This document shows positions 26,095 to 50,868 of a stretch of 64,000 nucleotides of DNA, one piece after another (within the stretch, counting starts at the first letter, position 1; every line of letters begins with the position of its first letter). Under the pieces are notes generated by a model. That model saw nothing but the letters and a program-made list of their open reading frames with translations. It had not been told where the DNA came from and searched no databases. Location: the NCBI GenBank assembly GCA_963575745.1, contig CAUYUJ010000048.1:434001-498000 (forward strand), written 5' to 3'. This DNA comes from Prorocentrum cordatum. Taxonomy: Eukaryota. A program made the translations under genes and the position numbers.

Positions 26095-26210
26095 TTAAGT
26101 CGGGCATGTCCCGCTGCAGGAGGAATATTCAAACATAGTGAAACATGTTCTAGAGACAATTTGAACAATAACTGGGATATGTTTTAACTTTCTTCCGAAA
26201 TCTGCCTGTA
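26095..26210. mobile_element. MITE family A, copy 4 (target of the large transposon; its last bases resume at 44098-44117)
   Basis: Starts TTAAGTCGGGCATGTCCCGCTGCAGG and breaks at AAATCTGCCTG-TA. The missing GGGGGACATTCCCGACCTA follows 44097. Confidence 0.88.
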
Positions 26211-26234
26211 CTTGGATGGCCGCGGCGGCTGCTA

Positions 26235-26585
26235 GGTGGTTAGCGCGGATACTAAGGGGTTAGAGGATTTAGTATGTACGTACAAGTGAGTTGTAAGTAG
26301 GTTATAAGTGTTGTAAGTCGGATGTAAGTTGTATAACCAGCTACAACTGGTTAGTAGGAGATACTAACCACTTATAGCTGGAGGCTAACCTTGCTAAGTC
26401 TCTAGTAGAGGTTAGCTCGCTAAGTCCCCACTCTAGCTACCACTTACTAACCACTTAGTAACCACTTAGCTGCCACTTAGTAACCACCCAGTAACCACTT
26501 ACTAACCACTTAGTAACCACATAGTAAGTCCGCTAGCTAGCTTACTTACTAAGTGGTTAGCGGACTTACTAAGTGGTTAGCGGAC
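26235..26585. repeat. Left subterminal repeats (TAACCACTTAG / CTAAGTGGTTA)
   Basis: AT-rich block with many ACTTAG/CTAAGT motifs in both orientations, next to the TIR. Confidence 0.85.
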
Positions 26586-28187
26586 TCTGAGAAGGAGAAG
26601 GAGGAGGAGGAAGAGGAGGAGGAGGAGGAGGAGGAGGAGGAAGAGGAGGGGGAGAGAGGAGGAGGAGGAGAAGGAGGAGGAGGAGGAGGAGAAGGAGGAG
26701 GAGATGTCGAGGAGGAGGAGGAGTAGGAGGAGGACGGGGAGGAGGATGAGGAGGAGGAGGAAAGGGGGAGGCGGCGGCGGAGGCGGCGACGGGCGCGCCT
26801 CAGCCCAAGACGGCCGCTCGACGCGGCGGCCCTGCAGGGCCGCCGCGTCGAGCGGCAGCCTGGCGCGGCTGAGCGCGGCGCAGGCGAAGTTCGCCTGCGC
26901 CGCGCTCTGCGCCGCCATCTCCAGCGGCATTGCCGCTGGCGCGGGCGGCGGGGGGGGCCCCGCGCGCCGCTCGGCAGCCAGAGCGGCCCACCGCACGTAG
27001 CCGTCGTCCACAACCCAGAGGGTTGGGAGACGACGACGTGCGACGGGCCGATGGCTGCCGAGCCCGTCCCACCCCTCGGGGATGTCGAGGAGGATCCCCG
27101 ACATCCCCGAGGGGTCCTCCGAGAGGAGACTGCCCCATGGCTCGGGGTCGCCATCGAAAAACATGTCTTGATATGTTTTTCGATGGCGATCCCGAGCCGC
27201 GAAGCAAAGGGAAAAGGGAGGGCGCGCCCCCGCGCGGCCTGTAAGCCGCACGCGCGCGGGCGGCGTCTCCTCCTCCCCCTCCTTCTATCCTCCTCCTCCT
27301 CCTCCTCCTCCCTCTCCTCCTCCTCCTCCTCCTCCTCCTCCTCCTCCTCCTCCTCCTCCTCCTCCTCCTCCTCCTCTCCGCCTCCTCCTCTCGCCCTCCT
27401 CCTCTCGTCATCATCATATACTCCTCCCTCGTCCTCCTCCTCCTCATCCTCCTCCTCGTCCTCCTAACCCTCCGCTCCTCCCTCGTCCTCCTCCCCTCAT
27501 CCCCTCCTCTCCTCCTCCTCCCTCCCCTCCTCCTCCTCCTCCTCCTCCTAGCTCCTCTCTCTCCTCCTCCTCCTCCTCTCCTCCTCCTCCTCCTCCTCCT
27601 CCTCGTCCCTCCTCCTCCTCCTCTCCTCCTCCTCCTCCTCCCCCCCCCCCTCCTCCTCCCCATCCTCCTCTCGCTCTGAGCTATCTCGTCTTTTTCCTCC
27701 TCCTCATGCTCCTCCTCCTCCTCCTCCTCCTCCTCCTCCTCCTCCTCCGCCTCCTCCTCCTCATCCCCCTCCCCCTCCTCCACCCTCCCCCCCTCGTCAG
27801 AGGAGGAGGGGGGGAGGAGAAGGGGGAGGGGGGGCAAGATGAGGAGGAGAAGCAGCAGTAGGAGCAGGAGGAGGAGGGGGAGAAGGGGGAGGATGAGGGG
27901 ACGGAGGAGTTTGAACGACCGCACCACTGATCAACGACATTAGCGCTGCAGCGCAAGAGGAGGAGGAGGAACGAGGCGGAGAAGAGGAATCGGCGACCAT
28001 GCACTGTTCAGGTGCTGCAGCACCGAAGTGTCAATGAAAAAGGTACGCTACAGCGCAATGCAGAAGGAATCCACGTTTTCAAGGCGGAGAAAAGGAGTCG
28101 TCGACCATGCAACGTTCAGGTGCTGCAGCACCGAAGCATTTAGCAATGTAAAAAAGTGCGCTGCAGCGCCAGTAAGGAAACCACGTT

Positions 28188-30067
28188 TTAGGCTAAAGCG
28201 CACCACCGCGGCTGCGACCATATCGGGCGCGCCACTCGGATGCCGCCGCCCTCGCGCGGCGCCCACGCGAGCGAGCACACGATGCTCGCCGTGTGCGCCC
28301 AAAAGGCGTCGGCATCGCCGCCAAGCACGTGCGCGGAGGCGCGCGGGTGCAGCTTCTCCTTGAAGAAGTAGGGCAGGACCAAGCTCAAGCCATAGTAGTG
28401 GCCGTTCTTGGCGAAGGAGAGGTGTTCCAACACCTCGGCCGCAATGTGCTCCCCTCCTCCGTCCTCCAACAGCACGACGTCGCCGTATTTGACGTCGTGG
28501 TAGCGGCACCGCGCTGCAGCGGACGTAACAAAGTCCGCAGGCCCGAACTGCTGCAGCAGTTCGCGCGAGATGGCCTTGGACGGCCTGGTGGCGTTAACCA
28601 GGCAGTTAACCTTAAAGGTGTCGCCATCCATGAGCTGCCACAGGTGCCGCTCGGTGACGCTCTTCAGGACATTGGCGTCCCAGCCGCTGGAGGCTGCAGC
28701 CCCCGCCTGAAGAGCGTTCGCAAAGCGCTTGCTGGTCTTGTGCTTGCGCTCCAAAACCCAGCACGACGGCAGCGCCACATGGCCCCAACGCCTCACGTAG
28801 TTGGCGAAGTGGTGCAGGTAATGGAACTTCTGCGCCATCGTTTCCTTGCCAAAGACGTTGCTGTATGACAGCAAAAACCTGTTAACCGCAGCCTGCAGCT
28901 TATCCGCGTCTGCCTGACGCCTGGATACTCGTAGGATTTCTTCCACAACGATCGTGTGCGCCTCGAACACTGCGCAAGCCGATCGGACTGCAGGCGCTGC
29001 AGCGTCGCTAGCCACCTCCCTGAAGAAACACGTCAATCCGCCCGCGCGAACGCATGTCCGAACAAGAGGGGTGCAGTACATATCCTACAGAAATTCACGT
29101 GCGCTGCAGCGCATGTATTATTGGTCTGGCGGGGGCGCGAAGCATGCAATGATACTTGCATGGTTGTGAGCCCCTCGCTGGCGGTACACTTGAAATGCTT
29201 GCTGTCAACGTGGGACCTCACGCGCTTCTCGCCGAAGATCGCGCACGTGTCGGGGGAGATGGAGTGGCACCCTGGAAACGACCAGTCCTGGAAATATGCG
29301 TCTGCGCGCGCCCAGTAACCCTTCAACCTTCGAAACATTTGGAACACCCGAATGTTATATGTACCGTTGGCGAAAATACACTGCATCCAATCAACCATGA
29401 CTGCCTCGAGCGGCTTGAGTTTCCGAACCCGCTCAGGCAAATGGGGGTCCCAGTTCCAGCCAAGTCGGCGCTCCAACTCCTGGAACTCGCCCTTGTTCAT
29501 GACGTTGACCCCTTCGATCAATCTGCTGCAGATGGCATCGAGCAACGGCGCCGTCATCGGCTGCAGCCGCGACGCATCTGGTTCCGAGTGGTGAACAGCG
29601 ACACCCGTCGCATCAGAAGCAACTATATCCCGAACTTCGCCCTTCAAGAACACGTTGCGGCACATAAATGGTTTGATTCCTGACGAACCTTTCATTCCGA
29701 TCAAGCGGTGCATTGCATCCTCGTCCGCGATCCGACAGAGCCGCTGCAGCGACGCAAGAAGGCGTAATGGATATATACATGCGCACATGTATGCTAACTA
29801 ATATTGGGTGCTATGCGGCGACCGCTGCAGCGGCTGCATGTAAATGCCGAGGTCCATCTGGATGAGCTCCGTCGCGCCGTCGGGGCGCAGCCGCAAGCTG
29901 ATGCCAGCGCTGAAGTTGTGCCCCTGATCAGGCCAGAACTGCGCGAGGATTGCGTCCAGTAGCATCGTCAGTCCGCGCGGCTGGATGTCGTTCGCGGTCT
30001 TGGCCCGCATCGTCGCGAGCTGGAACCACGCATCCTGCGAACAAATCGCAGCACAACTGGCGCTGCA

Positions 30068-30112
<45 letters not shown>

Positions 30113-30623
30113 CCCTCTCCCCCCCCCCGCATATATCGTTGCTGCAGCAACGCTATCGCGAAAGTCCTCCGACGAAAGCGCCTGCGGGCCGAATTCCGCG
30201 ATCGCCCAGTAGATGCCCCAGGGACTTGCGGTTCTGCGCGTGCGCCAGCGCGTTGCCAGCGCCTATTTCATCGCCGTAAATGATGATGTGCCACGGGCGT
30301 GGCAGCTCCAGCGCCCGCTGCCACAGAGGCTGCATCGCGGGGAGGGCGCTGCAATACCACAGCATTGCTGCTGGACTGCAGATCTCCACCGTGTGCTGCC
30401 CGACTATCATGTTCTGGTGGAGCTTGCCGTACGGCGTGTTCTCACCGACCATGAGCTCCCGAGCGTCTCTGATATCCTGGCGTCGGGATCCCAATTCGGG
30501 GATTCCGTCTCGCTTAACGGACGCCAGGAATTGCGCCATCGCATTACAATGCATGAATGGCAGTTCCGCGCGAAGGCGGGACAGCCGCCGCAGCTTCGCT
30601 GGGCGGTCGTCCTCTGCCGCCAT
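28188..30623 (-). CDS. DDE transposase, CACTA/EnSpm-Plavaka-like. About 4 exons, with at least one 1-bp frameshift near 30221.
   Basis: Ordered motifs IIIYGDEIGAGNAL..RKS(W)GIYWAIAEFG, IADEDA..MKGSSGIKPF-CRN, MVDWMQCIFANG and KFHYLHHFANYVRRWG..SCWVLERKHK. These correspond to the D, D, DxMH-like and KxHxxxH...ER motifs recalled for CMC transposases. Intron 30035-30166 has a GAG|GA donor and TTCGCAG|G acceptor. Confidence 0.82.
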
Positions 30624-31310
30624 CGCGCGCGTTCCCGAGGCAAGCTTGCCTCCGTCGCTGCGCGCGCGCGGAGGGGCCCCTCCGCTAGGGGCCACGGCGA
30701 CTACGGATGGAAATGAGGCTGCACCGCGTGGAGAGCAACCAAATGCGCGCTGCAGCTCTAACTGCCAAGCAACAGTCTGGGGGCACATGGCGCTACAGCG
30801 CCGCTAACGTTCAATGGTGACAATCTGACGCGCTGCAGCGCGAACGTCCTCCTCCTCCTCCATCCTGCTCGCCATCCCCCTCGTCCTCCTCCTCTTCCTC
30901 CCCCTCCTATGCCTCCTCCTCCTCCTCCTCCCCCTCCTCCTCCTCCTCCTCTTCCTCCTCCTCATGCGCCCCCTCATCCTCCCCATCCTCCTCCTCAACC
31001 TACCCATCCTCCTCATCATCCGTCTCCCGTCCCTTCATCCTCCCCGTCACCATCACCTTCATCGTCAACAGCATCAATATCACTCGCCCTCATCATCCGC
31101 CACATCACCATCCAACGAGAAACTGCAAGCGAAACTGCGCTGCAGCGCAACACATTAACACATCATGATCCGCGCGCAAACTTTCAACCGTGGTCCACGG
31201 AGAAGCGCTGCAGCGCAACTCAAACAACACGCTCAACCACGTTCCCTCCAGCCATTACCAATCAATCGAACCAGCATGCTTCAGCAGGCGGTCGCCGAGG
31301 CCGACCTCGC

Positions 31311-31740
31311 TCAGGTCACCTTCATCTTTTGGCGTTCCGCAGCGAGGTCAACGCCTCGTTGAGTTTCTGGTTGGCCACGTCCGAAGCGGCGATGTCCATC
31401 TGACCCCGACCCTGCTACTCATACTCCTCATCCTCCCACATCATCGCCTTCCACCTCCTCCTGATCATCCCCCCTGTCGTCCTTCTCCCCCGCTGCAGCG
31501 GGGGAGTAGCCTGCCGCACTCATGAACCCCACCGTCCTCCTTCTCATCCGCCTCCTCATCCACCTGCAGCTCCGCGGTGCGGATCTGCACCTGCTTCTCC
31601 GCTTTCCTGGCGTTCTTCCGCGCCTCCTTCACCTCTGCTGTAGCAGTCGCCGTCGCTCTCGCGCGGGCCTCGCGCAACTCGTCGCGACGGTCGGCGCGCG
31701 CTTGCGCTTCGAACGGCTTGTCGCAGCGGCGCGCCGCCAT
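31311..31740 (-). CDS. Small charged, coiled-coil-like protein, probably 2 exons
   Basis: MAARRCDKPFEAQARADRRDELREAR...KAEKQVQIRTAELQ, then a CAG acceptor at about 31400 and MDIAASDVANQKLNEALTSLRNAKKMKVT-stop. Confidence 0.45.
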
Positions 31741-32486
31741 TGCGAGCCCAGTGAGGAGGCGGAGGAGGTCCGTTGCCAGCGCCCGCTGCAGCGAACGATG
31801 GCGGCTGCGACGCGCGAGCCAAGTGAGGAGGAGGAGGAGGGGGAGGAGGGGGAGGAGGGCATGCCATCGGCAACGCGCAACATGAGCGAATCGCAGCGCT
31901 GCAGCGCGTGACTTGGCAACAACCATGCGGGAGACAACGCTCGACATCACGAATGATGGCGCTGCAGCGCGCATCGACGAGGAACGACCGGCACTCAAGA
32001 CGAGCACGCCACGCAATACATGGACACCGCGGCTGCAACTGCACACTCACAAACGCGCCAACGCTACAACGGCACCACAAGTCTGACAGGCGCTGCAGCG
32101 CTGCATCGGAACTCAACAGCACGCAATATCTACGCCACCATCCAGGAAAGCGAGCGCTGCAGCGCTGCATCGTGATCATGATGGCGATGCAAACGTTGAA
32201 CACAAAGGCGCCAGCGCTGCAGCGCCCGCATCCAAGAGAACCCGTCAACATATTTGACTTTCATCCTCCTCGTCGCCCGTGCGAGCCGCGCGACCGCCAG
32301 GCAAGACCATCGCCACTACCGTTCATATCATCGGCCAGCGTTCCATCCAACCTCGCACTAATCCTCACCATCCTCCTCATTCCTTCTCCTCCACATGCTC
32401 ATCCTCCTCATCATCCTACCCATCCTCCTCCTCGCCCTCATAATCCTCATCCTCACCTCCATATGCCGACAGTGCCCGTTGCGCGC

Positions 32487-34348
32487 TCACGGCTTGCCGC
32501 GACGGCCAGTGAAGTTCGGGTCGCGGCACGTGCCGCAGCCATTCGGCAGGTAGCGGCATTTGCTGCACCCGGGTGCCATTTGGCCCCGTTTGGCTGCCGC
32601 CTTGCCCTTGGGCTTGGCCTTGGCCTTGGCTTTGGCCTTCCCTTTGCCCTTGGCCTTCGGTTTGGCCGTGCCCTTGGCCGCCGTCTTGCCCTTGCCAGCG
32701 CCTGTCTTGCTCTTGCCCTTGATCGCGCTCTTGCCCTTGCCCTTCTTGCCCTTGCCCTTGCCCTTGCCCTTGCGAGGCAGCTCGCCTTTCGCGCTGCCCG
32801 CAGCCAAGGTCTCGATCGCCTGCAGCACAGCATCCTCGTCTCCGTCTGCTGCTGCAGCAGCATCTTCGTTTGGCGGCGTTGGCGCTGCTGCAGCAGCATC
32901 TGGCGCCGCCGCTGGCAATGCTGGCCCAGCTGGCGAATCGCCAATCGCGGGGGGACTCGCGGGGGGGCTCGCCGTGGGCGCCGCAGGGCGGCGCGGGAAG
33001 AGCTGCAGCTGCAGCTCGTTGGGCGGCGATGGCGGTGGCGCAAACGCTGCCAGCATTTGCTGCATCACGGCCATCGCGTCCATGGGTTGCATTGGCGCTG
33101 CAGGCGGCACGGAGGGTGACCCCGATGGTGTCCATGGCACAATGGCAGTGCTCGGCTGATGCGGCGGGGCGGCAGCCCGCAAGCCCTTGTTGGTCAGCCT
33201 GAGAGGCGCGCGAGCCTTGATGGCGTTGAGACCCGCAGGCCGCTTCAGCGGCGCACGCGTAGCATGAAACCTATCATGCTCTATGCGAGGTGGACCTAAA
33301 GGACCGAGCTCACCGAAGCACCCAAGACATCCAGAACAATCAGCGCTGCAGCGCATGACGGGGTGGCAGCAGCCTCGTAGATGCGATGCCACGTTGGCGA
33401 GGTCGCGCGTCACATCGATCGGCGGGTCCGCATCGGTGTACGCCGCGTCGAAGATGTGCTGAGGGAGCTGCCGAGGATCTGCTGGGAAATTCCAAGTCAC
33501 TGTCGCCGCTTGCCCCGTCGCGCCCCTGCGGCTCGCCAAGAACTGACCCTGTAAAGGGCGACTCGTCGGGAAACCCTAACGCTGACGCGCCGCATCGCAT
33601 TGGCTGCAGTCAGTGCGATGCGATGCGTCTGCGTTAGGCGTTCCCGCCGAATCCCAAACCTTCATCTCCGTCACGATCCCGTAGAGCTGCCCAGGGTTTG
33701 CGTCTGGAAGATGGGTGCATGCCATCAACGCCGCCAACTCTTTCAGCGCGTTCTCGCTCGGAACCGTCAAGCCGATGACACCGCGACGTTTGATCAACGC
33801 GCGCACCTTCGCGACGATGCTCTGGTTGGGGTCGCGAAATAAACCCCAGTCCTGCATGGTAAAGTCCACCAGCCTACGAATCGACGCAGGCATGCTGCAG
33901 CATGATAACATACGTACATTTGAAACATGAACATGGTAACATACATAAAGTACAGAACAAACAATGAAACCATACATGTGAATAACACTTCGGCGGTCCG
34001 ATGTGCAAAGCACGATGGATAGCACCGCCCTGACGCGAGCGTCTGCACGCGCATCTGGAGCGCGGGCGTCGCCGTGCCCACGCGCGCGGCCAGCGCGGCG
34101 CTGAGGCGCGCCTTGTGGCTGTCCGCGAAGCCCGACGCGGTGATTCGATTCTGCAGGGTAGCTGCTTGGGCAGCCCCGATCGTCCCCAAGTTGTGAAGCT
34201 GCAGCTGCACGCTCATGGACAAGGCGGACTGGCTCTGCGCCATCGCGTCGGCGGCGATGACGCCGATCTGCGATGCGAAGAAGGCGTCGCAGCTGTCCAG
34301 GTTATCCAGGATGTGGTTGATGGGTGTGGCCGCAGCCGCGGCAGACAT
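32487..34348 (-). CDS. Multi-exon unknown protein with a Pro/Ala linker, Lys/Gly/Ala-rich tail and C-terminal CxxC-x6-CxxC
   Basis: Coding-like segments MSAAAAATPINHILDNLDSCDAFF..., DFTMQDWGLFRDPNQS...PSENALKELAAL..., FPADPRQLPQHIFDAAY... and KGKGKAKAKAKAKPK...PGCSKCRYLPNGCGTCRDPNFTGRRGKP. Confidence 0.65.
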
Positions 34349-35171
34349 GATGCCCTCCGCGAGGGCGAGGGGGCGCGCGGACGCTCCGAGGGGAAGCGCG
34401 AGGGAGGGCCTCCCACACTGCGAGAGCTGAAGCACTCGGCTGCTGAGGTGGAAGAGAGGCCACAACAGTGCAGATGCGCTGCAGCGCAACGATCGCATGC
34501 AATTAAGGAACACACGTGAGCGCTGCAGCGCTCAGCAGAAATCATCGTCACAAAGTAACATGAAGCGCTGCAGCGCTATGCATGCGCACCATGATGGAAC
34601 GCATGGTAGTGGGCAATAGGGAGAGAGATATAGAGTGATGGAAAGGAGAGGAGGGAGATAATGAGGGACACGGGGGGGAGGGGGGGGGCGGGGGGAGATG
34701 CGAGGAGACACGGGAGGGAAGGACACGAGCGCGGGCGGGCGGGCGGGCAGGACACGGGGGGAGATGCATGATCATTTGAGGAACACGGAAGGGACGGTGC
34801 GAAAGACACGGAGGGGTGGGAGGGACATGGGAGAAACACGGGGGGGGGGGGCACGGAAGAGACACGGGAGGGACACGGGAGTTCGGGGGCGAGCGGGCGG
34901 ACGGACGCGGGAGCGGTGCGGAGGGACACGGGCGGGAGCGCACGGAAGGCAGGTGGAGACACGGAAGGGGCACGGGAGAGACGCGGGAGAGACACGGGAG
35001 ACGGATAGGTATACACGGGAGCTCGGGAGCGGGCGGGCGGGCAGACACAGGAGGGACACGGAAGGTGTCCGAGGAGGGCGCGGGACGGATTCAGGAGATG
35101 CGCGAAGTTTGATCAGGAGCAAATACCGAAGCGATCTGGGAGCCTCGAAGGCAGCTGGGACATCGACAGAG

Positions 35172-35323
35172 GCGTGTCTGTTCAATAGAGGGGGCTATTG
35201 AACAGACACGGGCGTGGCTGTTCAATAGAGGGGGCTATTGAACATGGCATGTTCAATAGAGGGGGCTATTGAACAGACACGGGCGTGGCTGTTCAATAGA
35301 AGGGGGCTATTGAACAGACACGC
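35172..35323. repeat. Four tandem hairpin units TGTTCAATAG-aggg(g)g-CTATTGAACA
   Basis: Units start near 35179, 35219, 35250 and 35290. Confidence 0.9.
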
Positions 35324-36367
35324 CGCTGTCAGACAGCATCACCCCTGCAGAGGGGCACCGACGCTCTCAGATCGCTTCACCCGAAGCTCCCGTTCGACCT
35401 CAGATCAGCCGTCCTGATGCCAACATCCAGCACTCCAGCCCACCCCAACGGCCACCCACGCAGTCCCAGAACACTGTCCACACTGCTGATTTCGAGGTGG
35501 GAGTGAAACTAAGAGAGGCGCGAAGTACATCACGCGGCGCTGCTGCAGCAGCGTCGCGACGAGGTTGACGATGCCGAAACCGCTGTCAACTGCAAAGATT
35601 TACGCTCACGGCTCTGCTGCAGCAGCGTCGCGATGGCTCGAGACTGCTGAGGACAAGGCTGATGGGAGCTGGTGGGGCTGCCAGGAGGCCATGGGGGGAG
35701 CTACTCGGCGGCGCAACGAACTGTGCTGAAGGGGAGCAGGGAGAGTGGCGAAGGGCGATGCGATGCGAGACGGCTTGCCATCTGAAGTGCCCCAGGACCC
35801 CCCCAAGTGCCCCCAAACTTTCCTGGCCAATCCAAGGCCGACCCCTGGCACATCAGCCCATGCGAAAAAAAGTCAGCGGATCAGGATGTGAACGTCGACG
35901 ATGGCAGATAGATGTGATGAGGATATCGGAGCGCCTTTCTGGGCGACAGCGCGGGCGCACCACGCGATCTGGCGCACGAAATATAACCTGGCCTAAACAC
36001 ATGCATGCGTCGGCGTCAGCTATGCTCGCGAACTGATCCAATCCACCCCCCCATTGCTCCCATTGATCTTACATGTTGGGTTGCTACAGCATGTATCCTA
36101 TCACTATGCGTTCGTTGTCCCCCTCGCTCACGGGAGAGTGGATACCCGCTGCAGCGGGCATCCTGTCTACCGTCTCTCTCCAATGTGTCTTCACTCCACC
36201 CCCACGCTGCGTCTCCATCGTCCCCCTCGCATTCCCTATGTATATCACGTCTCCCCCCTGTCTACCTCTACTATAGTCCCCCCTCTCCCCCTGTCTACCT
36301 CTACTGAGTTACCGTCCCATTCCGTCGCCCACCAGTAGTGGAATGCTCCGCGGCCGCGCCGCAGCTC

Positions 36368-37126
36368 TCATGTGGCGCCCGCAGGCGCTGCAGCGCCAGG
36401 GGCCGCTCGGCGGCCGCCTCCGCCCTCGGCGCTCGGCGGCGCGCCCTCGGCGCTCGGCGGCCGCCTCCGCCCTCGGCGCTCGGCGCGGCCGCCTCCGCCC
36501 TCGGCGCTCGGCGCGCCCTCGGCGCTCGGCGGCCGCCTCCGCCTCCGCCTCCGCGGCCTCATCCGCGGCCTCCTCCGCGTGAGGCGCCCCTCGGCGGCCT
36601 CCTCCGCGGGCGCCTGCGCCTCCTCGGCGGCCTCCTCGGCGCCAGCGCCGACCCAGACCTGTGCTGGGCCAGCGTAGTACTCCTCCGCGAGGGCGGCCGC
36701 GTCGGCGCACTCGCCCGCCAGCAGCAGCTCGCAGAGCTGCTGCGCCCTATTGAACCAGCCGCCACGCCGCTGCTGCTGGTCCCCGTCGCGGACAAGCTTG
36801 CCCTTGCCGCCCTTGCTCTTGTCCTTGCCCTTGCCCTTGCAAGGTGGGCCGCCGCCGTCCTTGTCCTTGTCCTTGCCCTTGCCCATGCCGCAAGGTGGGC
36901 CGCCGACGTTGTCCTCGTCCTTGCCCTTGCCCTTGCCCTTGCAAGGTGGGCCGTCGCTGCCGCCCTTGCCGTGCGGGGCGGCGCGCGACGTCGGCCGCGC
37001 CTTGGCGGCAGCGAGCTCGGCCGCGGGGTCCCGCGGCTCGAACCCTGGCGGCGGCGCCGCAGGCGGCGTCGGCCGCAGGACGGCGAACTCCTCGGCGTCC
37101 TCGTCGTAGTCGAGCTGCGACGCCAT
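36368..37126 (-). CDS. KG-rich unknown protein
   Basis: MASQLDYDEDAEEFAVL..., three GPPC(K/G)..KGKG repeats, then RRGGWFNRAQQLCELLLAGE. The 3' part is minisatellite-like. Confidence 0.5.
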   Translation of the reverse strand: MASQLDYDEDAEEFAVLRPTPPAAPPPGFEPRDPAAELAAAKARPTSRAAPHGKGGSDGPPCKGKGKGKDEDNVGGPPCGMGKGKDKDKDGGGPPCKGKGKDKSKGGKGKLVRDGDQQQRRGGWFNRAQQLCELLLAGECADAAALAEEYYAGPAQVWVGAGAEEAAEEAQAPAEEAAEGRLTRRRPRMRPRRRRRRRPPSAEGAPSAEGGGGRAERRGRRRPPSAEGAPPSAEGGGGRRAAPGAAAPAGAT

Positions 37127-37171
37127 CGCTGCGCGATGCAGCGAGCGAAGCTGCAGCTCGCCAAGCTGCAT

Positions 37172-37291
37172 GATGGGCTTGGTTTCCACCACCAGTACCA
37201 TAAGTTGGAGGGAGAGGTCCTCCTCCTCCTCTTCTTTCTCCTCCTCCTCCTTCTCCAACATATGGTAGTGGTGGTGGAAACCAGTCCCATC
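37172..37291. mobile_element. Fold-back MITE family C
   Basis: GGTTTCCACCACCAGTACCATAAGTTGGAG ... CTCCAACATATGGTAGTGGTGGTGGAAACC. Related copy at 58835-59127. Confidence 0.7.
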
Positions 37292-38206
37292 ACTGCAGCT
37301 GAAGCTGCACTCGGGCGCGCGGGCGCGCGACGCTGCAGCGCGCGAAGCTGCAGCTGCAGCTGCGCGGAACAAAAAACAGCGGCGGTGCCAACGACGAATA
37401 CGATGGCGACGACGCTGACGACGATGGACCCCTGCTAACCAGTCGACTGACCCCCCAAAGTAACATCACCCCGCAAAGTAACATCACCCCCAACTGAACC
37501 TCCGAAGGCCAACGACTGGATTGACCTCCCCAAGGCTGCCCCCCTCAGGATAGGAGGAGGAGGAGGGGGATGAGGGGGGGAGGGAGGATTGGAGGGAGAG
37601 GAGGAGGGGGGGGAGGAGGGGGGGCAGGAGAAGGAGGAGGAGGAGGAGGACACGGATGAGGAGGAGAAGAAGGAGAGGGAGGAGGAGGAGAAGGAGGAGG
37701 AGAAGGAGGAGTAGGAGAATGAGAGGGAGGATGAGGAGGAGGAGGAGGAGGAGGAGGAGGAGGAGGAGGAGAGGGAGTATGCGGAGGCAGGAATAGGCAG
37801 AAGGAGCGGGGGGGCGGGGCATGGGTGCCAACTGGTTGTCTTCCTCCTCCTCCTCCTCGTCATACTCCTCGTCCTCGGCCTCCTTCTCCTCCTCCTCCTC
37901 CTCATCATCATCATCATCATCATCCTGCCCCCCTTCCCCTGCTCCGAGGTGCTGGCAGCGAGCGGTGGGAACCGGTGAAAATGAGGGCGTTCCAGAACGT
38001 CGTCCTCAATGTCGTCGTCCTCCTGATCACCCTCCTCCTCCTCAGCATCATCCTCCCTCCACCTTCTTCTCCTGCATGCACTGCTCTGAATTACGTCGTC
38101 TTTAACGCCGTCGTCGTTGTCTCTGTCGCCGTCGCCGCCGTCGCGATGCTGTCTCCGACTGAAACAGTGGTGCTGCAGCACTGACCGCGCGCGCGCCGCG
38201 CGCCCG

Positions 38207-38560
38207 TCACTTCCGCGGCTTCTTCGCGATGTGGCATTGGACTGTCAGCGCAACCGCTGCCTCGCGGTCCCCGCGCTGAAGCGCTTCCCGAATCATGTCG
38301 CACACAAGCTTCCACATGCCAACCTTGGTTTCAGCATCGCGCTTGCGCGCGGCTGCAGCCGCGCGCGGGGCTGGCGCATCACTGGCGGCTGCAGCCGCGG
38401 TCCTCGTCGACGTCGGAGGCGGTGGTGGCGGCGGCGGCGGCGGAGGAGGGGGAGTAGCCGCATATGTCGCATCCGATGCAGCGGACTTCGCATTCGGCGG
38501 CGGCACTGGCTCCGAGGGAAGCCGCCATGGCGGCGTCGCTGCACTCATGTTGGCAGCCAT
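38207..38560 (-). CDS. Small unknown protein
   Basis: MAANMSAATPPWR...RKRDAETKVGMWKLVCDMIREALQRGDREAAVAL. The helical motif loosely parallels GGWFNRAQQLCELLLAGECADAAAL in the neighbouring gene. Confidence 0.4.
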   Translation of the reverse strand: MAANMSAATPPWRLPSEPVPPPNAKSAASDATYAATPPPPPPPPPPPPPTSTRTAAAAASDAPAPRAAAAARKRDAETKVGMWKLVCDMIREALQRGDREAAVALTVQCHIAKKPRK

Positions 38561-39075
38561 TGATGTTCTGATCACAGGTGGCTGCGAACCACATGCAATA
38601 ACATAAAGCGAACATGCGGGCTGCAAGCGCGATCGAAGCGCTACATCAACACGCCAGACACGCAAAATGTAAGTCAGCGCTGCAGCGCGACGCAAAAATC
38701 TGATATCGGCACGCCAGACACCCGAACGTAAATCAGCGCTGCAGCACGATGGGCTCCAAGCACACGAAACGTAAGTCAGCGCTGCAGCGCCGTGAGGTCA
38801 CACATCGACGGCGGCAACGCGCGAGAGGCACACTTGATCGGATCGTAGTGTCGTCGCGCGGCAGCACGCTTGATCATACCAACGATTCGCAATGACGCCA
38901 ACAGTAGCGAACATTGGGGGGATCCACCAACAATCCGCAATTATTATCCCAATCCTCCTCCTCGTTCTCCTCCTCGCCCTCGTCCTCGTGCTCGCCCTCC
39001 TCGCTGCCATTCTCAATCGCACTGCCGGCCGTGATCGCACGCCCCAGCGATGCGGTCGACCGAGCGCGCCGCAGC

Positions 39076-39839
39076 TCAGTCCGAGTCGGCCTCCTCCTCC
39101 TCCGCATCGCCCTCCGCCTCCGCTTCCATCTCCTGGAGCTCATCCGCTTCGCAATCCTTGAGTTCGGCGGTGCACCACTTCGCCGCGGCCGCTTCAGCGT
39201 CATCCTTGCTGCAGCCGCGGTTTGTGCGGAACAAGGCCGTCCTGCTGCAACCGCAGTCTATGCGGACGGCCCGCCAAGCTTGGAGCCGCTGCACCCAATA
39301 GATGCGGGCGCCGCAAGGAACGTCGGTCTCGTGGCGCCGCGGGCGCTTCAGCACCGTGCTCGCCTCTGCCGCCTCCGCCGCCTCCTGAAGCAATTTGGCC
39401 TTGATGTACTCTACGCCCTTCTCGTGCAGCGCCACCTGCAGCTTGTCCCCCCCCCCCCCTATGAGGCGGGGGAATGACAATCTGCAGCTCTGTTGCCTCC
39501 GTATCGCCAAACGGCGGCAGCTGCGCTGTCTTGAAGCACTTGTCCACTGGAACCTGGCCAGTCGCGGCCGGACCGCGTGGTCGGGCGGCGGCCTGGCTCC
39601 GCTGCAGCGAAGAGCGTCGTCGGCGCCGTTGGCCCCGACGACGCGGTGCGCTGATTTTTCAGCCACGTTAGGAACATCGTGCCTCGCAAGCCCTGAGCCT
39701 TGCCGCACACCCACTTGCTCCAACCTGCGGTGGTCACGGTGATGCACTCGCGGTCTCCGATGACCTCGACGGCCGTGACCAGCTCGCGCCCCGTACGGTT
39801 GTCGTGCAACACGACGCAGTCGCGCTTGATCGTCGCCAT
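39076..39839 (-). CDS. Protein with a C-terminal AP2-like domain and acidic tail (frameshifted)
   Basis: Three overlapping frames join into MATIKRDCVVLHD..., LPPFGDTEATELQIV..., KLQVALHEKGVEYIK...KRPRR...RIYWVQRLQAWRAVRIDCGCSRTALFRTNRGCSKDDAEAAAAKW. Shifts near 39610 and at the poly-C at about 39450. Confidence 0.55.
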
Positions 39840-40333
39840 CGCGCGCGCGGCGCGCCGAGGCTGCAGCCCGAGCGCGGTCGCACTTCAGCGCCAAAATTGC
39901 TGCGATGGAGTGATGAGGCAACATGTGCGCGGACGAGGTGCTCATGATGAGGTGCGCTGCAGCGCATGTGAAAGATGAAGCGAAGAGCAACGATCACATC
40001 GAGCACAACAGTGATGACGAAGCCGCTGCAGCGGCATGTCTGTGGGAAAGGCTGATGTCAGCACCAATATTGTACAGTCGCTGCAGCGACGATGCTGGCG
40101 CAACGAATCGTTCCGCGCGCTGCAGCGCCGCGGCAAGTATCGCACTTCGCACCAACCCGCGCACTGTTTACACCAATCGGAGGGCCACGCTCGGTGCCGT
40201 CATGTGCGCTCGCCGCTCCTTAAGCCCCCTCATCCTCCTCCCTATGCCAAACCTTACCCTGCCTCCTCCTCCTCCTCCGCATCACCCCTCCCTCCTGCCT
40301 CATCCTCCCGCGTGGTCCCTCTATATCGCCAGC

Positions 40334-43190
40334 TCAGGCCGTCCTGAGCTTCTTGGCTGGCCGCGGCTGCAGCCGCGGCCACGGCTTCACCGCCAGGAAG
40401 TCGCCCGCGGACAGGGCGCAAGTGTTATGCATCTGGGGCACCCCCACCTGCACCTTGTTGACGCCTGTCCCGAACGTCACGGTCTCCTTTCGGAGCTCCA
40501 TGTTGGGCTCTGAGTCGGACTTTGCCACCACCCAGAAGGGGCTGACAAAGGCGTCGGGGCCCCGCGACCCCTCAGCGGGGGGCCCTGCGAACTGCGGGCC
40601 CACGAAGAACTCGTAGAGGCCAACCTTCCCCAACGAGATGCTCTCCGCAACGCAGCCCGTGCTGACCCGCGTGGACGAGGCTGAAATGCGACCACTCCCA
40701 CCGCGTGGAGCTACATGGCGCGCAGTCGGTAACATCACTGACCTCGTCGCTACGGCCTGACGTGCCCCGAAATCCTCGCTACCTCGTGCTCAGCGCAGCG
40801 CTGCAGCGCGGCGTCGTCGGAGGGGGGCGCGGACGATTGCGGAAGCACAAGTCTGACGAGCTCACCCACTTTGAACGCTCGCTTGCAGCGCGCGGCAGGT
40901 GGGTCCTGCAGGATCTCCAAGTGCAAAATGTTCGCCTGGTACTTCAGCGCTTGGAGCCGCAGCGCCATGTTGCATGCCCCCTTGAACGCGTCCATCGCCC
41001 AACCCTCGTGGGCTGGCGGCAAGTGCTCCTTCGTGAACGGCAACTGCTCCTGCACCCTGGACGTCAACTTGTAATTCTCGAGCAATATGTTTACTTCAAT
41101 CCGCCCGCTCGGCTAACTGCTCCGTGCGCTGCAGCGCATCGACCAACCCATTGCAACTTAAGTACAGGAAATACAATATCGCAGTTACTACCTCCTCCTC
41201 CCCCCTCCCTGCTCCCCACGGGCGGCGGGGTGGCTGCAGCCACGCAATGGAGATCTCTTCGCCCACCAGGTCGCCGTGCAACTTCTTCTGAGCGGTGATC
41301 CCATTCTCCGAGATGGAGAGCACCTCGAAGACGTCATCCACCTCCTTCTTCTGGACGATGTGCTTCCCCACGTCGAACCCTGCACGCCGCATGCGGAAGA
41401 CGTTGCTCTTCAACTCAGCGGCCGACGACGCTGCCGCGCGCGGCGCGTCTGCATCGGCGCTCGCTGGGAACTCGGGTGCGCCATCGCCTTGCTTGTCGGT
41501 CTGCACCGCCTTGCCGAACTCGATCCCCAAGCTCTTCATCTGCAGCTGGGCTGGCTCCCCGAGCTCATGGAGGAAGACCTCTCTGGAGGGTCGCTGCAGC
41601 GACATTGAATGGCGAAAAGCAGGGAGGGAGGGAAACAAGGAGCACACGAAAGGTGGCGTGAGAAGATACCTGTGCTATATCTGCTACGCATCCGAAAGCG
41701 CGGTCTCCTGGCGCTCGCTTCTTCACCAGGTACATGGCACAGCGGACATCCAACTTTGTGATGTGCAAGAAGCCCTGCTCCGCTCCGATATCCAACCTCT
41801 TCACGAGCGACCTTGCGTCGGCCATGAGGTTGTCGGCCGCAGCCACGTCCGCCTTGCGGGACGCGACGTGGACGATCTCGTTTGCCTTGATCCGCCCATC
41901 GCTTCAGCGATTGCGTTTGGGAATAAAGCAATGTAACGGTGCGTGTGTGTGTGTGGGGAGGGGGGAGGGGTGGGTACGCAGTTCTAACAATGCAGCGCAA
42001 TGCATAGATGCGCTGCAGCGCATGTCACTACAAGGGGGCGCCGACAAGCTTATGGATGGTCCTGCACATGCTATCCACCACGTGCTCGCCTGAATAGTTG
42101 GCCTTCACGAGCGCCGCTACGACATACGGGTACGACTCCTGGTGCTTCCCCCATTTAATCGAATTCAACTTGCGCCAGAATTCAGAGCCGCACATCAAAG
42201 TTTGCCCCGAGACGTCCACATTCGTGAAGGTCTTGAGGGCTTCATCTATTTCACGGAGAAGTTCTCCGTTTTGTGGCCCGAGCTCAACAAACTTGCACAA
42301 GTCAGCGATCCACGCCTTGCAAGGTGGGTTCGCGTGGCCCGCTTGCTCGGCGATGTCGCGCCAATCGGGCTTGCTGGAACCCTCAGCGAGGCTGTGTGCC
42401 AAGAGCATCCGCCCACCTGCCTGCAGCAAGCGCCGAGCCGATCAAGTGCTGCAGCACGGTAAGATATAATGCTCCTGCTCCTCGTTCTCACCTCCTCCCC
42501 AACGCGCTCCCACTCATCACCCTCCTCGTGCATCATCCTGGTCCTTACTACATACCGCTATATACTATAGTGGGGATAGGCTGCAGCCTGACCGAATGAT
42601 CTCGGTCTCGTGAACCGCCTCCCTGACGTCGGCGTTCAAAGCCCTCTGCACGAAGTTCTTGAGGCCCTTCACTTTGGCCACCGCGTGCTTGATGATCAAC
42701 CACGTCAGGCCCTTTTTGACTGCCGTCGCAAGTTGCGGATGCAACGCGCGCAGCTTTTTCCGGAGTCGATGTTGTCCCGAGAGTCTGCCAGCGCCTTCAC
42801 TGTGGTCGGCGCCTTGGCCAGCACGCAGCGGAGGAAGACGTTCGCGTGGGAGCCGCCCACTGACGTATACCGCAATGAGTCCAGCGGGGGGCACCGACCC
42901 CCGCTGAGCCGCGAAAGGCGGTCGTTCGCCATCGCGGTCTCTTCCAACTGCGCCCCCTGGGCGCAAATCTTCGCGCCTAAATTGTGAGCCCGCGCAGGGT
43001 TCACTAACGAACCGCTGCGGTTCCGAATGTCGATGCCCATCTGGTTCGGTGGGACCTGCTGGTAATACGCTAGCCCCTCCGCCAGCAGGAACTCCTTCAG
43101 TTGATCCCACCCCGATGCCAACCTCCCCGAGGAATTGCTTTCCTCGATGTACTGCAAGATCTGCTCCTCCTGGCGCGCCTGCAGCGCCAT
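40334..43190 (-). CDS. Large ~6-exon protein with an N-terminal ParB/Srx-like region and a C-terminal degenerate SET-like region
   Basis: Coding blocks at about 43190-42594, 42420-42040, 41900-41668, 41580-41245, 41090-40850 and 40700-40334. N-terminal VPPNQMGIDIRNR..AHNLGAKICAQG..SVGGSH. C-terminal ARCKRAFKVGELV..SPFWVVAKSDSEPNM..NTCALSAGDFL. Frameshift near 42760. The gene is well supported, but the domain names come from motif resemblance only. Confidence 0.65.
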
Positions 43191-43849
43191 GCCAGCGCTA
43201 TATATAGCGCCGAATGCAACGTGCGAGCCCGCGGGCGCGACGGCGGATGCGGCGCGCGGCCGCAGCTTGAGACAAGCTGTCGCGCGGCGTGCGCGTGAAC
43301 ATCGACTTGCATGGACATGCAACTTGCGAGCCAAAATGTTGATCTGGGCTGCAGCCCGAGGCCCATGAAGCACGAGCGCGCACGCGCTGCAGCGCGATGC
43401 GACATCACGACGACAACCATTTTTTTGCGCTGCAGCGCAAAGTAACATACGTGCTATCAAATCTGGAGCGCTGCAGCGCTCAATGCGACCATTGAAAAAA
43501 ACAACGAATACAACAAAACATAATTGACATGTGCATTCAAATTCCTTGCAAACGGAGCTGGGCGAAAATGAAGATCCGAACAACGCGCAATTAGAAAACA
43601 TGCATTTAACTCAACATTCAGCGCTGCAGCGCTTCATATTCAGCGCACGCAGCGCTTCATGTTCATATAAATCCGAAGGCAGCGCTGCAGCGCTTCTCAT
43701 ATTTAAAGCAAAAATCCAGGACACCGACTCCAAATCAAAATGCAAAATTTGTAGCGCTGCAGCGCTCAACGAACAAACTCAGCTCTTTCAAGACGTGGAT
43801 TTACCTTTTTTTCCCTGTGCATGGCCCTTGGATAACAAGTGCAATGTAA

Positions 43850-44071
43850 CCGCTAAGTCACTTATAACCTACTTAGCAAACTAGCTATAAGCGGTTATAA
43901 GTGGTTAGCTAAGTGCGCTAAGCACTTAGCTAACTGGTTATAAGTGGATAGCTAAGTACTTACTAAGTCATTACTAAGTGGGCCACTTAGTAATGACTGA
44001 GTAAGTACTTAGCTAAGTCCGCTAACTACTTACTAAGTATTTAACTTAGCGTAGTAAGTATGTTAAGTACT
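43850..44071. repeat. Right subterminal repeats
   Basis: Same CTAAGT/ACTTAG/TAAGTGGTTAG motifs as at the left end. Confidence 0.85.
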
Positions 44072-44156
44072 TAGCAACCGCCGCGGCCATCCAAGTAGGG
44101 GGACATTCCCGACCTAGTCCAGGGGTCGGTCCCCCACCGATGACCGTGGTCCATAG

Positions 44157-44812
44157 GGCCCACCGCACCCATTTTGGCACACCCCTCACACGCTTTGTGG
44201 CCCCATAGAGAGCTCCACCACAGGCCCAGATGCCAGCGCTTGCATGCGCCCACCGTGCCCATTTTGGCACACCCATCACACGCTTTGTGGCCCCATAGGG
44301 AGCTCCACCTAAGGTCCGCATTGCAGCGCTCGCATACGCCCACCGTTCCAATTTTGCGACACCTCTTGATCGTTTCTAGGCTCCGTAGGGAGCCCCGTCG
44401 AAGGCCCAGATGCCCGCGCTCGCATGCGCCCACCGCACCCATTTTGGCACACCCCTCACGCGTTTTGTGGCCCAAACGGGAGCTCCACCACGGGCCCAGA
44501 TGCCAGCGCTCGCATGCGCCCACCGCACCCATTTTTTGCACACCTCTCACACGTTTGGTGGCCCCATAGGGGCATCCGCCGAAAGCACACAAGGCAGCGC
44601 TCGTATGCGCCCACCGCACCCATTTTGCCACACCTCTCACATGCTTCGTCGCCCCATAGGGAACTCCATCGAAGGCCCAGATGCCCGCGCTCGCATGCGC
44701 CCACTGCACCCATTCTGGCACACCCTTCACGCACTTCGTGGCCCCAACGGGAGCTCCACCGAATGCGGCGCATACAGCGGCAGTGCCCACAACTGCATAT
44801 GGTTGGGTCTTT
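44157..44812. repeat. ~90-bp tandem repeat, about 7 copies
   Basis: GCCCACCGCACCCATTTTGGCACACC...GTGGCCCCATAGGGAGCTCCACC recurs every 90-91 bp. Confidence 0.93.
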
Positions 44813-50054: not shown

Positions 50055-50868
50055 AGGGGGACCGCCAACATGCGTCCCCCACATGCAATTTTGCATTTTC
50101 GCCCACCCAGTGCAGCGCTTCGTGGCCCCATAGGGAGCTCCACCGAAGCCCCCAGTGGGACCGCCCGCATGCGTCCCCCACGCCCAGGTTGGCATTTTCG
50201 CCCACCCAGTACAGCGCTTCGTGGCCCCATAAGGAGCTCCACCGAAGCCCCCAGTGGGACCGCCCGCATGCGCCCCCCACACCCAGGTTGGCATTGTCAC
50301 CCACCCAGTGCAGCGCTTCGTGGCCCCATAAGGAGCTCCACCGAAGCCCCCAGTGAGACCGCCCGCATGCGTCCCCCACGTCCAATTTGGCATTTCCATC
50401 CACCCAGTACAGCGCTTCGTGACCCCATAGGGAGCTCCACCGAAGCCTCCAGTGGGACCGCCCGCATGCCCAATTTGGCATTTTCACCGACCCAGTACAG
50501 CGCTTCGTGGCGCCATAGGGAGCTCCACCGAAGCCCCCAGTGGGGCCGCCCGCATGCGTCCCCCACATCCAATTTGGCATTTTCACCCACCCTTTGGACC
50601 CTTTACAACGCTTCGCGGCCCTATGGGGGGCTCCACCGAAGCCCCCAATGGGACCGCCCGCGTGCGTCCCACACGCCTAAGTTGGTATTTTCACCCACGC
50701 AGTGCAGCGTTTCGTGGCCTCATAGGGAGCTTCACCGACGGCCCCATTGCTACCGCCCGCATGCGTTCCCCCCCGCCCAGCGAAGCGCTTCGTGGCCCCA
50801 TAGGGAGCTTCATCGAAGAAGATATTCACAATTGCGGTACCCACAACTTCATATGGTTGGGTCCTTCG
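50055..50868. repeat. ~100-bp tandem repeat, about 8 copies, related to the 44157-44812 array
   Basis: CGCTTCGTGGCCCCATAGGGAGCTCCACCGAAGCCCCCAGTGGGACCGCCCGCATGCG units. Confidence 0.9.

Follow-up and report, generated by a model that had tools for sequence, protein, structure and literature searches.

Why would a single DNA transposon of the dinoflagellate Prorocentrum cordatum carry the same short palindrome dozens of times, in exons as well as in introns and spacers? The question is raised by a 64-kb stretch of contig CAUYUJ010000048.1 (assembly GCA_963575745.1, positions 434,001 to 498,000), which is the sequence we analysed and which we call the window; its coordinates are used for all element numbers. 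The stretch contains a 17.9-kb element (26209-44097) that, judging from its ends and genes, is a terminal-inverted-repeat (TIR) DNA transposon, and the palindromes inside it are all centred on the 8-mer GCTGCAGC. The reading that we favour, to which we give a probability of roughly 40%, is that each unit is a selected fold-back site, a hairpin or cruciform, whose constant tip would be read by a sequence-specific factor, probably one that the element itself encodes.

Exact matches to GCTGCAGC number 74 in the window, three of them outside the element's interior (46844, 53132 and 53142), a chance level for the 48 kb of flanks, and all the others in one domain:

27945..43763, unstranded: GCTGCAGC palindrome domain, 71 sites

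One hundred dinucleotide shuffles of the window gave a mean of 2.75 copies and a maximum of 9, and Markov models of order 1 to 5 trained on the flanks expect 0.28-0.69 copies per 15.8 kb, which puts the enrichment of this centre in the element above 100-fold. The GC content is alike in the element (0.622) and in the flanks (0.610). GCTGCAGC is the commonest 8-mer of the region, and among the other palindromic 8-mers of the window none shows a comparable excess; palindromes with other centres and arms of at least 6 nt occur 12 times in the element (0.76/kb) versus 1.60/kb in the flanks. Since only the GCTGCAGC centre is enriched and other palindromes stay at background, a core-specific agent is needed, that is, one that recognises sequence. 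Similar 25-nt flanks were seen in just 4 site pairs, nearly all sites lying in unique sequence, so the sites are not a duplicated block; an assembly artefact was ruled out, as contigs of four public runs span the stretch at ~99% identity.

The original prediction, made from the letters of this DNA, had described dozens of such palindromes confined to the transposon, and the confinement holds: the count inside and outside, set against the Markov background as it had proposed, is as given above. Its figure of more than 40 cores was an undercount, its ten listed palindromes were all found at their positions (the one at 40359 is really 24 bp long), and its limits, 27940..43770, fit the palindrome domain and fall short of the transposon, which is larger. 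The observation is confirmed and is stronger than first noted.

The arms were examined next to a null in which the right arms were shuffled among the 71 sites. Perfect pairing extends past the 8-mer by 0 nt at 3 sites, 1 nt at 13, 2 nt at 20, 3 nt at 24 and 4 nt at 5, and further at the remaining ones (5 nt at 2, 6 nt at 1, 7 nt at 2 and 8 nt at 1). Position ±1 is complementary in 68/71 sites (shuffled mean 29.9, sd 3.2, max 42), ±2 in 57/71 (shuffled 29.4) and ±3 in 41/71 (shuffled 19.7); at ±4 the 20/71 complementary pairs are at chance (17.7), and no base preference is seen beyond ±3 in the 71 sites. An outlier stands at ±6 (31 complementary versus 17.2 shuffled). As pairing reaches chance by ±4, each unit is a perfect palindrome of 12-14 bp whose centre is fixed and whose flanks vary in sequence but stay paired.

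The pairs at ±1 are C:G at 42 sites, T:A at 11, G:C at 9 and A:T at 6, with 3 non-complementary; where a site departs from C:G, both sides have changed together in 26 of 29 cases, bearing out the earlier idea that dyad symmetry itself is being selected or generated. Of the forms one step away, T..G is absent and C..A is seen once, against 11 sites with the doubly changed T:A, so a step-wise decay of CpG, which would leave more single-step than double forms, was rejected. Compensatory arm changes that preserve the pairs are present both in the window and in a family of related elements described below (the L004 family). Because the flanks co-vary, the arms must either pair with each other or one must have been copied from the other. 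Thermodynamic compensation, in the form of longer A/T-rich arms, was not found among these sites (mean extension 3.08 vs 3.13).

Degenerate units share the same territory: 27 one-mismatch cores with at least 2/3 complementary arm pairs also lie within 27945-43763, and a centre altered by one central transversion, which we call the TTCA variant, keeps complementary arms at 8 window sites:

31278, 33242, 34426, 37298, 38275, 39191, 39345 and 41901: GCTTCAGC/GCTGAAGC sites

The sites were then placed on the genes of the element, exon and intron assignments following predicted public gene models (P0002 for the transposase):

28191..30623, minus strand: transposase-like gene, 4 exons in the public models; tblastn with P0001-P0003, 81-94% identical
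32490..34310, minus strand: conserved accessory 'gene A', limits estimated; Lys-rich C-terminal region and cysteine motif GCSKCRY..GC..CR
39079..43190, minus strand: third gene region; exons 43190-42586 and 42429-42076 match P0007/P0008

On these models the sites do fall in introns, spacers and exons, as had been noted. In the transposase 4 sites lie in ~1.8 kb of exons and 6 in three introns (~586 bp), with four further sites after the stop codon, and clusters of 3-7 sites stand upstream of all three genes (34478-34567, 43348-43763 and 30749-31207); the sites are thus denser where coding leaves freedom. All four modelled introns hold two sites, which in intron 42588-42423 lie 0 and 26 nt from its ends and in the others 14-107 nt from the ends; complementary segments of 8-20 nt no more than 30 nt from both intron ends are found in 1/4 modelled introns, the same 42588-42423.

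Within exons the site takes two in-frame forms, x-Leu-Gln-x' and Ala-Ala-Ala. At the Leu-Gln sites that bear the 8-mer the flanking codons are mirrored in 7/7 cases (CGG..CCG, TCG..CGA, TGG..CCA, GCG..CGC and CTG..CAG), giving the peptides RLQP and ALQR twice each and SLQR, WLQP and LLQQ once, so that palindromy fixes the amino acids there. The Ala-Ala-Ala sites are spelled GCT-GCA-GC, using the two rarest Ala codons of these exons (GCG 86, GCC 40, GCA 24, GCT 21). Sites therefore override both codon usage and amino-acid choice. Three of the four sites of transposase exon 4 align gap-free to relatives, and the fourth, GAAAS, coincides with an insertion of 3-4 residues.

Overall site spacing is random-like (coefficient of variation 0.97), with a marked gap at short range: no neighbour distance falls in 16-35 bp and 11 fall in 36-45 bp (P=6e-6 under a uniform distribution of distances over 16-45 bp). 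The flanks of adjacent units are unrelated and no tandem repeat is visible. This 36-bp exclusion zone suggests that a bulky ligand sits at each site.

Relatives of the transposase comprise the distant full-length proteins P0005/P0006 and 26 metagenome loci (22-39% identity) obtained by a profile search, and the loci show whether the pattern recurs. The L004 family, seven loci 85-98% identical to one another and with a transposase ~30% identical to that of the window, holds 33 copies of GCTGCAGC in 23.7 kb, with 9 copies versus 0.28 expected in L006 alone; the other 19 loci have 5 copies in 67.5 kb. Among the occurrences listed for this family, 31/32 have complementary arms, at ~13 distinct positions, the commonest pair at ±1 being G:C and not C:G as in the window, and orthologous places have either GCTGCAGC or the TTCA-type centre. 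Both lineages have a site at one and the same LLQQ of the transposase, each time with its own mirrored arms (aact..agtt in the window, aactGCTGCAGCagtt; cct..agg in L004; ctt..aag in L008). The 8-mer is present, by our reading, in 6/6 Ala-Ala-Ala runs of L006 gene A, and MAAAM, GDAAA and PAAA are unchanged in gene-A homologues of 63-71% identity. A match between L006 ORF (open reading frame) 171-1550 and window 33863-33414 (25% over 150 aa, E 8e-11) links gene A of the two lineages, which have the C-terminal motif in common.

At one place L006 reads AGGCTGCAGCCT and L004/L005 read AGGCTTCAGCCT, a single substitution that makes or removes the site, and the commoner state among homologues there is Ala-Ser-Ala; sites thus arise by point substitution and not by insertion, and scars and mobile mini-palindromes are largely excluded. 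Being kept against codon bias, at a cost to amino-acid freedom, and recurring at ~30% identity, the sites are likely to be maintained by selection on the nucleic acid and not on the protein.

An intron of the transposase gene at profile position ~158 is common to the window, the L004 family, L011/L013 and L018:

window 30046-30185; L004:3059-3184; L008:1146-1265; L021:438-540; L018:421-558: shared intron

In the L004 family and L018 it forms a predicted hairpin of ~110 nt (z-scores of -2.7 to -4.9, as DNA or RNA), and in the window and L011 it has no long-hairpin fold. The tip of the hairpin reads GGGCTGCAGCCC in L008, GGGCTTCAGCCC, the TTCA variant, in L004 and L021, and GGGGCTTAAGCCCC in L018. 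A quick maximum-likelihood tree unites the window, L011/L013, L018 and the L004 family in one clade, with a Shimodaira-Hasegawa-like approximate likelihood ratio (SH-aLRT) support of 99.

How, then, might these sites work? Our reading builds on the enrichment, the co-variation, the override of coding preferences, the spacing and the recurrence in a relative, and from these we infer folding in vivo, a factor and a function. The sites would be a family-specific cis-element of the transposon. Each would fold as a DNA hairpin or cruciform, a hairpin in RNA only being less likely, with a stem of ~5 bp made of three variable pairs plus G:C and C:G; the constant tip, a TGCA loop closed by these G:C and C:G pairs, would be offered to the factor, probably one of the element's non-transposase proteins. 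Bound units might need at least ~36 bp of room each. They would line the interior of the element, where its genes lie, and the ACTTAG/CTAAGT repeats of its ends would presumably serve the transposase. Candidate roles of such a coat are self-marking for expression, protection, and immunity against insertion of sister copies. Among the three causes named in the original prediction, its cruciform or hairpin signal is the one that fits best.

Several points weigh against this reading. At 14 bp the palindromes are short for extrusion as cruciforms, and the predicted DNA hairpins reach ~-5.7 kcal/mol. Pairing fades gradually outwards (0.96, 0.81 and 0.64, conditional), which would fit zipper-like copying too, and the domain ends well inside the element, so that it could equally match a transcript, favouring RNA. 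The coincidence at LLQQ is explained in part by protein constraint, as relatives without a site have I/L-L-Q there. On the tree L011/L013 and L018, with 0-1 copies, separate the two site-rich lineages, and the trait therefore needs two changes, losses or parallel gains; the non-coding spacers of the L004 family are site-free, unlike those of the window. Finally, no element protein yielded a DNA-binding domain in searches of Pfam and PDB or with AlphaFold models.

The transcript-like extent of the domain leads directly to an explanation in RNA, in which stem-loops of a minus-strand transcript would present a UGCA tip to an RNA-binding factor, or pairing between sites would loop out introns. We hold this to be unlikely, and the least unlikely of the alternatives. 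Three genes lie on one strand, and the domain runs from ~570 nt before their first start codon (43190) to ~250 nt past their last stop codon (28191), leaving out the outer parts of the element; exons, introns and spacers all carry sites, and every modelled intron has two, with those at 0 and 26 nt in one of them recalling the 8-20 nt inverted repeats that, according to PMC10666404, are enriched near both ends of P. cordatum introns. Only one intron in four shows that 30-nt arrangement at both ends, though, nor would sites that pair with one another be expected to be palindromic each on its own. By our own count, non-complementary arm pairs would be G:U on the minus strand 14 times and on the plus strand 7 times, an excess that is weak and that the L004 family, whose genes are on the plus strand, does not repeat (1 plus-type vs 2 minus-type). 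Nor does selection on RNA require a self-complementary tip and Watson-Crick arms on both strands. The arms may instead be functionless, a by-product of nicking or replication stalling at GCTGCAGC followed by snap-back or template-switch recopying of one arm. Paired changes do far outnumber single-step intermediates, the outward decay of pairing is what recopying would give, and some sites reach 18-24 bp, beside which stand the 44-bp palindrome at 26813 and the site-centred hairpin intron; template switching creates and perfects hairpins according to PMC8794818 and PMC5453318, and hairpins of this origin are reported for transcribed yeast DNA in PMC3820800. What such recopying leaves unexplained is the more than 100-fold enrichment of one centre, its conservation in coding sequence against codon bias and the minimum spacing of 36 bp, and generic palindromes are not enriched in the element; we regard it as quite improbable.

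An invariant, palindromic 8-bp centre and sets of 3-7 sites, ~36-45 bp apart, ahead of each gene are also what binding sites of a dimeric transcription factor, or duplex sites of the ParB or IE-1 kind, would look like, grouped into homotypic enhancers or promoters with no folding at all, and an ORF at 39079-39540 is weakly AP2-like in a low-confidence model. Independent half-sites, however, predict ~2 T..A combinations at ±1, where 11 are seen, and many mixed pairs, where 3 are seen; the sites also spread over exons and introns of the whole 15.8 kb, and no DNA-binding family was detected in the element's proteins. We consider this improbable, more so than recopying, and the parS-like or AP2 sites of the original prediction fare no better, as co-varying flanks are not expected of dimer sites and neither a ParB nor an AP2 domain could be demonstrated. 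Its third proposal, scars of cleavage and fold-back repair, would have a site-specific break leave a hairpin-capped end that is opened off-centre and rejoined, or a small insert leave an excision footprint. The fixed arm length of ~7 nt and the arbitrary outer sequence suit it, yet repair of this kind adds bases, and the exonic sites are in frame and align indel-free to relatives, only GAAAS of the four in exon 4 matching an insertion of 3-4 residues; site and non-site alleles are one substitution apart, and site positions are conserved between diverged elements. Scars are accordingly very improbable.

No Pfam family was found for 20 window ORFs, P0001/P0004/P0005/P0006, P0007 and five further ORFs; PDB sequence searches with the element proteins returned nothing, an Atlas search with P0007 gave no usable match, and no ParB or IE-1 homologue was found among the element proteins searched. 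AlphaFold models of P0007 and of the AP2-like segment had predicted local distance difference test scores (pLDDT) of 38.8 and 47.7, both too poor for a fold search. The weak AP2-like pattern of ORF 39079-39540 consists of a beta-hairpin and a helix in the low-confidence model; its search matches were a 2161-aa PASTA-repeat protein, judged spurious, and an unnamed 247-aa protein. The ParB-like and AP2-like readings of element proteins thus stand as impressions.

A bolder version of the fold-back reading is that this transposon lineage writes a structural self code in nucleosome-free chromatin, made of mini-cruciforms with a fixed tip and a coating protein that the element encodes; we find this doubtful. 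Were it true, the coat could sustain expression, ward off silencing or base modification, or make the element immune to the insertion of sister copies, and the code would be powerful enough to impose codons and amino acids on the genes of the element itself.

Known systems resemble the pattern in part. En/Spm (CACTA) and similar TIR transposons have subterminal repeats bound by an accessory protein such as TNPA; the likeness lies in a short motif present many times and in both orientations in one element that encodes a transposase and accessory protein(s), and this element too has subterminal repeats (ACTTAG/CTAAGT), whereas the GCTGCAGC sites fill a 15.8-kb interior including exons and are perfect palindromes with co-varying flanks. 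The sopC locus of F consists of twelve 43-bp repeats with a 16-bp palindrome in each, and the palindromes of baculovirus homologous regions (hr) are bound by IE-1; in parS, sopC and hr alike the cognate protein is encoded by the same element. Like the present sites, these are arrays of short palindromes with a fixed centre whose neighbours lie about four helical turns apart (36-45 bp here); unlike them, they repeat one sequence in non-coding arrays, in tandem or in clusters, and we know of no co-variation of free flanks in them.

REP/BIME sequences, the PstI palindromes of Neurospora and the GC clusters of yeast are dispersed GC-rich hairpin repeats with a conserved core and compensatory stem changes, and the Neurospora ones are also centred on CTGCAG. 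REP/BIME and mitochondrial GC palindromes occur genome-wide, are mostly extragenic, are thought to be mobile and measure 18-40 bp or more, whereas the GCTGCAGC sites are confined to one transposon family, stand in frame in exons and arise by substitution. An origin from mobile mini-palindromes (REP, GC clusters, RPE-like) was rejected: there is no inserted block, three of four exon-4 sites being gap-free and alleles differing by one base, and there is no dispersal outside the element, where the 3 copies in 48 kb of flanks are chance. The DNA uptake sequences (DUS) of Neisseria and uptake signal sequences (USS) of Pasteurellaceae are non-palindromic single units, spread genome-wide and taken up by the competence machinery. 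They too are a dense short motif across coding and non-coding DNA, brought about by selection or drive and shaping codons and peptides; their genome-wide spread and uptake role do not apply to a nuclear transposon.

Closer in organism are the introners, hairpin-forming ones being described for Amoebophrya in PMC7789003. With these and with the inverted repeats of P. cordatum introns (PMC10666404), the likeness is of organism group and of complementary segments near the intron ends; an intron that holds two self-complementary sites can fit that definition (1/4 modelled introns), and the hairpin intron of the relatives bears a site at its tip. The GCTGCAGC sites differ in that most lie away from intron ends, many in exons and spacers, and in that each is palindromic alone.

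Dinoflagellate nuclei are without nucleosomal chromatin, and to our knowledge few sequence-specific regulators of dinoflagellates are known. The density reached here, ~1 site per 220 bp across an 18-kb transposon despite codon bias and amino-acid cost, bears on how these organisms recognise, express or silence their huge repeat load, and it offers a testable handle: one well-defined oligonucleotide, three proteins as candidates and a natural substrate that is abundant. Dispersed signals made of DNA secondary structure would be rare in a eukaryotic nuclear element, and these sites would be such a case if they fold. In plankton metagenomes the pattern can also serve as a practical marker of this transposon family. 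In the literature searched, we found no description of the GCTGCAGC motif or pattern for dinoflagellates, Prorocentrum cordatum, transposable elements or PstI palindromes. The sections available of PMC11071213, on 5-hydroxymethyluracil (5hmU) in Breviolum, report no sequence motif, and no link to the GCTGCAGC sites was found in those of PMC13229309, on ParB-dependent thymine dioxygenases of phages.

Palindromes with other centres were also sought in the remaining lineages. Outside the L004 family, where the centre is CTGCAG, no 6-mer survived correction for 60 tests except AAGCTT in L001 (corrected p 0.038), which lies within tandem repeats; ACATGT, considered as a lineage-specific centre in L011/L013, was non-significant. 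These AAGCTT copies (L001:356-522, and L022:220-386) sit in 50-bp tandem units upstream of the transposase gene, and AGGCCT occurs in an (AAGGCCTTCC)n tandem repeat, likewise upstream of the transposase gene, at L012:93-150; in none of them do the flanks co-vary. Viral contigs contained neither a transposase relative nor paired 12-mer sites.

The transposon that hosts the sites is delimited by the following features:

26209..26237, plus strand: left terminal inverted repeat, starts TACTTGGATGGCCGCGGCGG
26290..26580, unstranded: left subterminal array of ACTTAG/CTAAGT type; 26440-26569 aligns with the reverse complement of 43846-43981
26813..26856, unstranded: 44-bp perfect palindrome centred on CCCTGCAGGG, arms of 22, longest in the window
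43846..44069, unstranded: right subterminal ACTTAG/CTAAGT array
44069..44097, minus strand: right terminal inverted repeat, pairs with 26209-26237

The two terminal repeats match at 27/29 positions when the right one is reverse-complemented, with an identical run of 20 nt, and the junctions read ...gcctg | TIR ... TIR | ggggg..., without a clear direct repeat. Of the 25 ACTTAG/CTAAGT hexamers in the window the two subterminal regions contain 21, with the palindrome ACTTAG|CTAAGT a frequent arrangement. This palindrome is also found at distantly related loci (L016:492, L019:335 and 367, L025:6961); the hexamer is likely to be an end-binding motif common to the transposase superfamily. GCTGCAGC is absent from the outermost 1.7 kb at the left end of the element and from the outermost 0.33 kb at its right end. 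Assignment to the CACTA/CMC superfamily was not adopted, since the TIR begins TACTTGG and not CACTA/CACTG and P0001, P0004, P0005 and P0006 match no Pfam family at E<=1. Conserved columns of the transposase (PWxxxxYxDE, DGxAH, CxxC, HDxxH and LERKHK) appear to resemble CMC motifs.

Contigs of four runs span 27.5-44.1 kb at ~99% identity and high depth, and the contig alignment of run X1 ends at 44096, at the right TIR; the 17.9-kb element thus belongs to a young family present in multiple copies. P0001-P0004, P0007 and P0008 are paralogues encoded on different contigs, and the minus-strand ORFs are 81-96% identical to Prorocentrum cordatum proteins. Among the 40 variants listed of the 244 between window and contigs, the window copy carries 2 inserted nt at 42759, which put the third gene out of frame (also relative to P0007/P0008), and is without ~45 bp near 42957, where other copies, and P0007/P0008 too, encode an Ala-rich FVLAKTAAAAAFEAPQG; position 30757 is T in the window and G in the contigs, the G restoring an arm pair. 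Coding-like ORFs, recognised by their GC1/2/3 pattern, lie at 41099-41674, 40753-41112, 40337-40789 and 39079-39993, and perhaps the third gene, starting at 43190, runs on to 39079 as a single gene.

The 44-bp palindrome on CCCTGCAGGG lies between low-complexity GGA/CCT tracts, inside the element and outside the GCTGCAGC domain. Long tracts of this trinucleotide type occur in the element in both orientations (26580-26800, 27250-27900, 30850-31070 and 37530-37830), and most joints and loose ends of the contigs from the public runs fall within them. Beyond the element, an excess of CGCATGCG and GGAGCTCC at 44-51 kb was discarded as copies of 90-99 bp satellites with identical flanks. These satellites, at 44100-44800 and 50100-50800, have periods of 90 and ~99 bp and very high depth in all four public runs (bin 43769-44300), and every unit has a CCATTTTGGC-like stretch that, presumably, recalls part of the dinoflagellate spliced leader.

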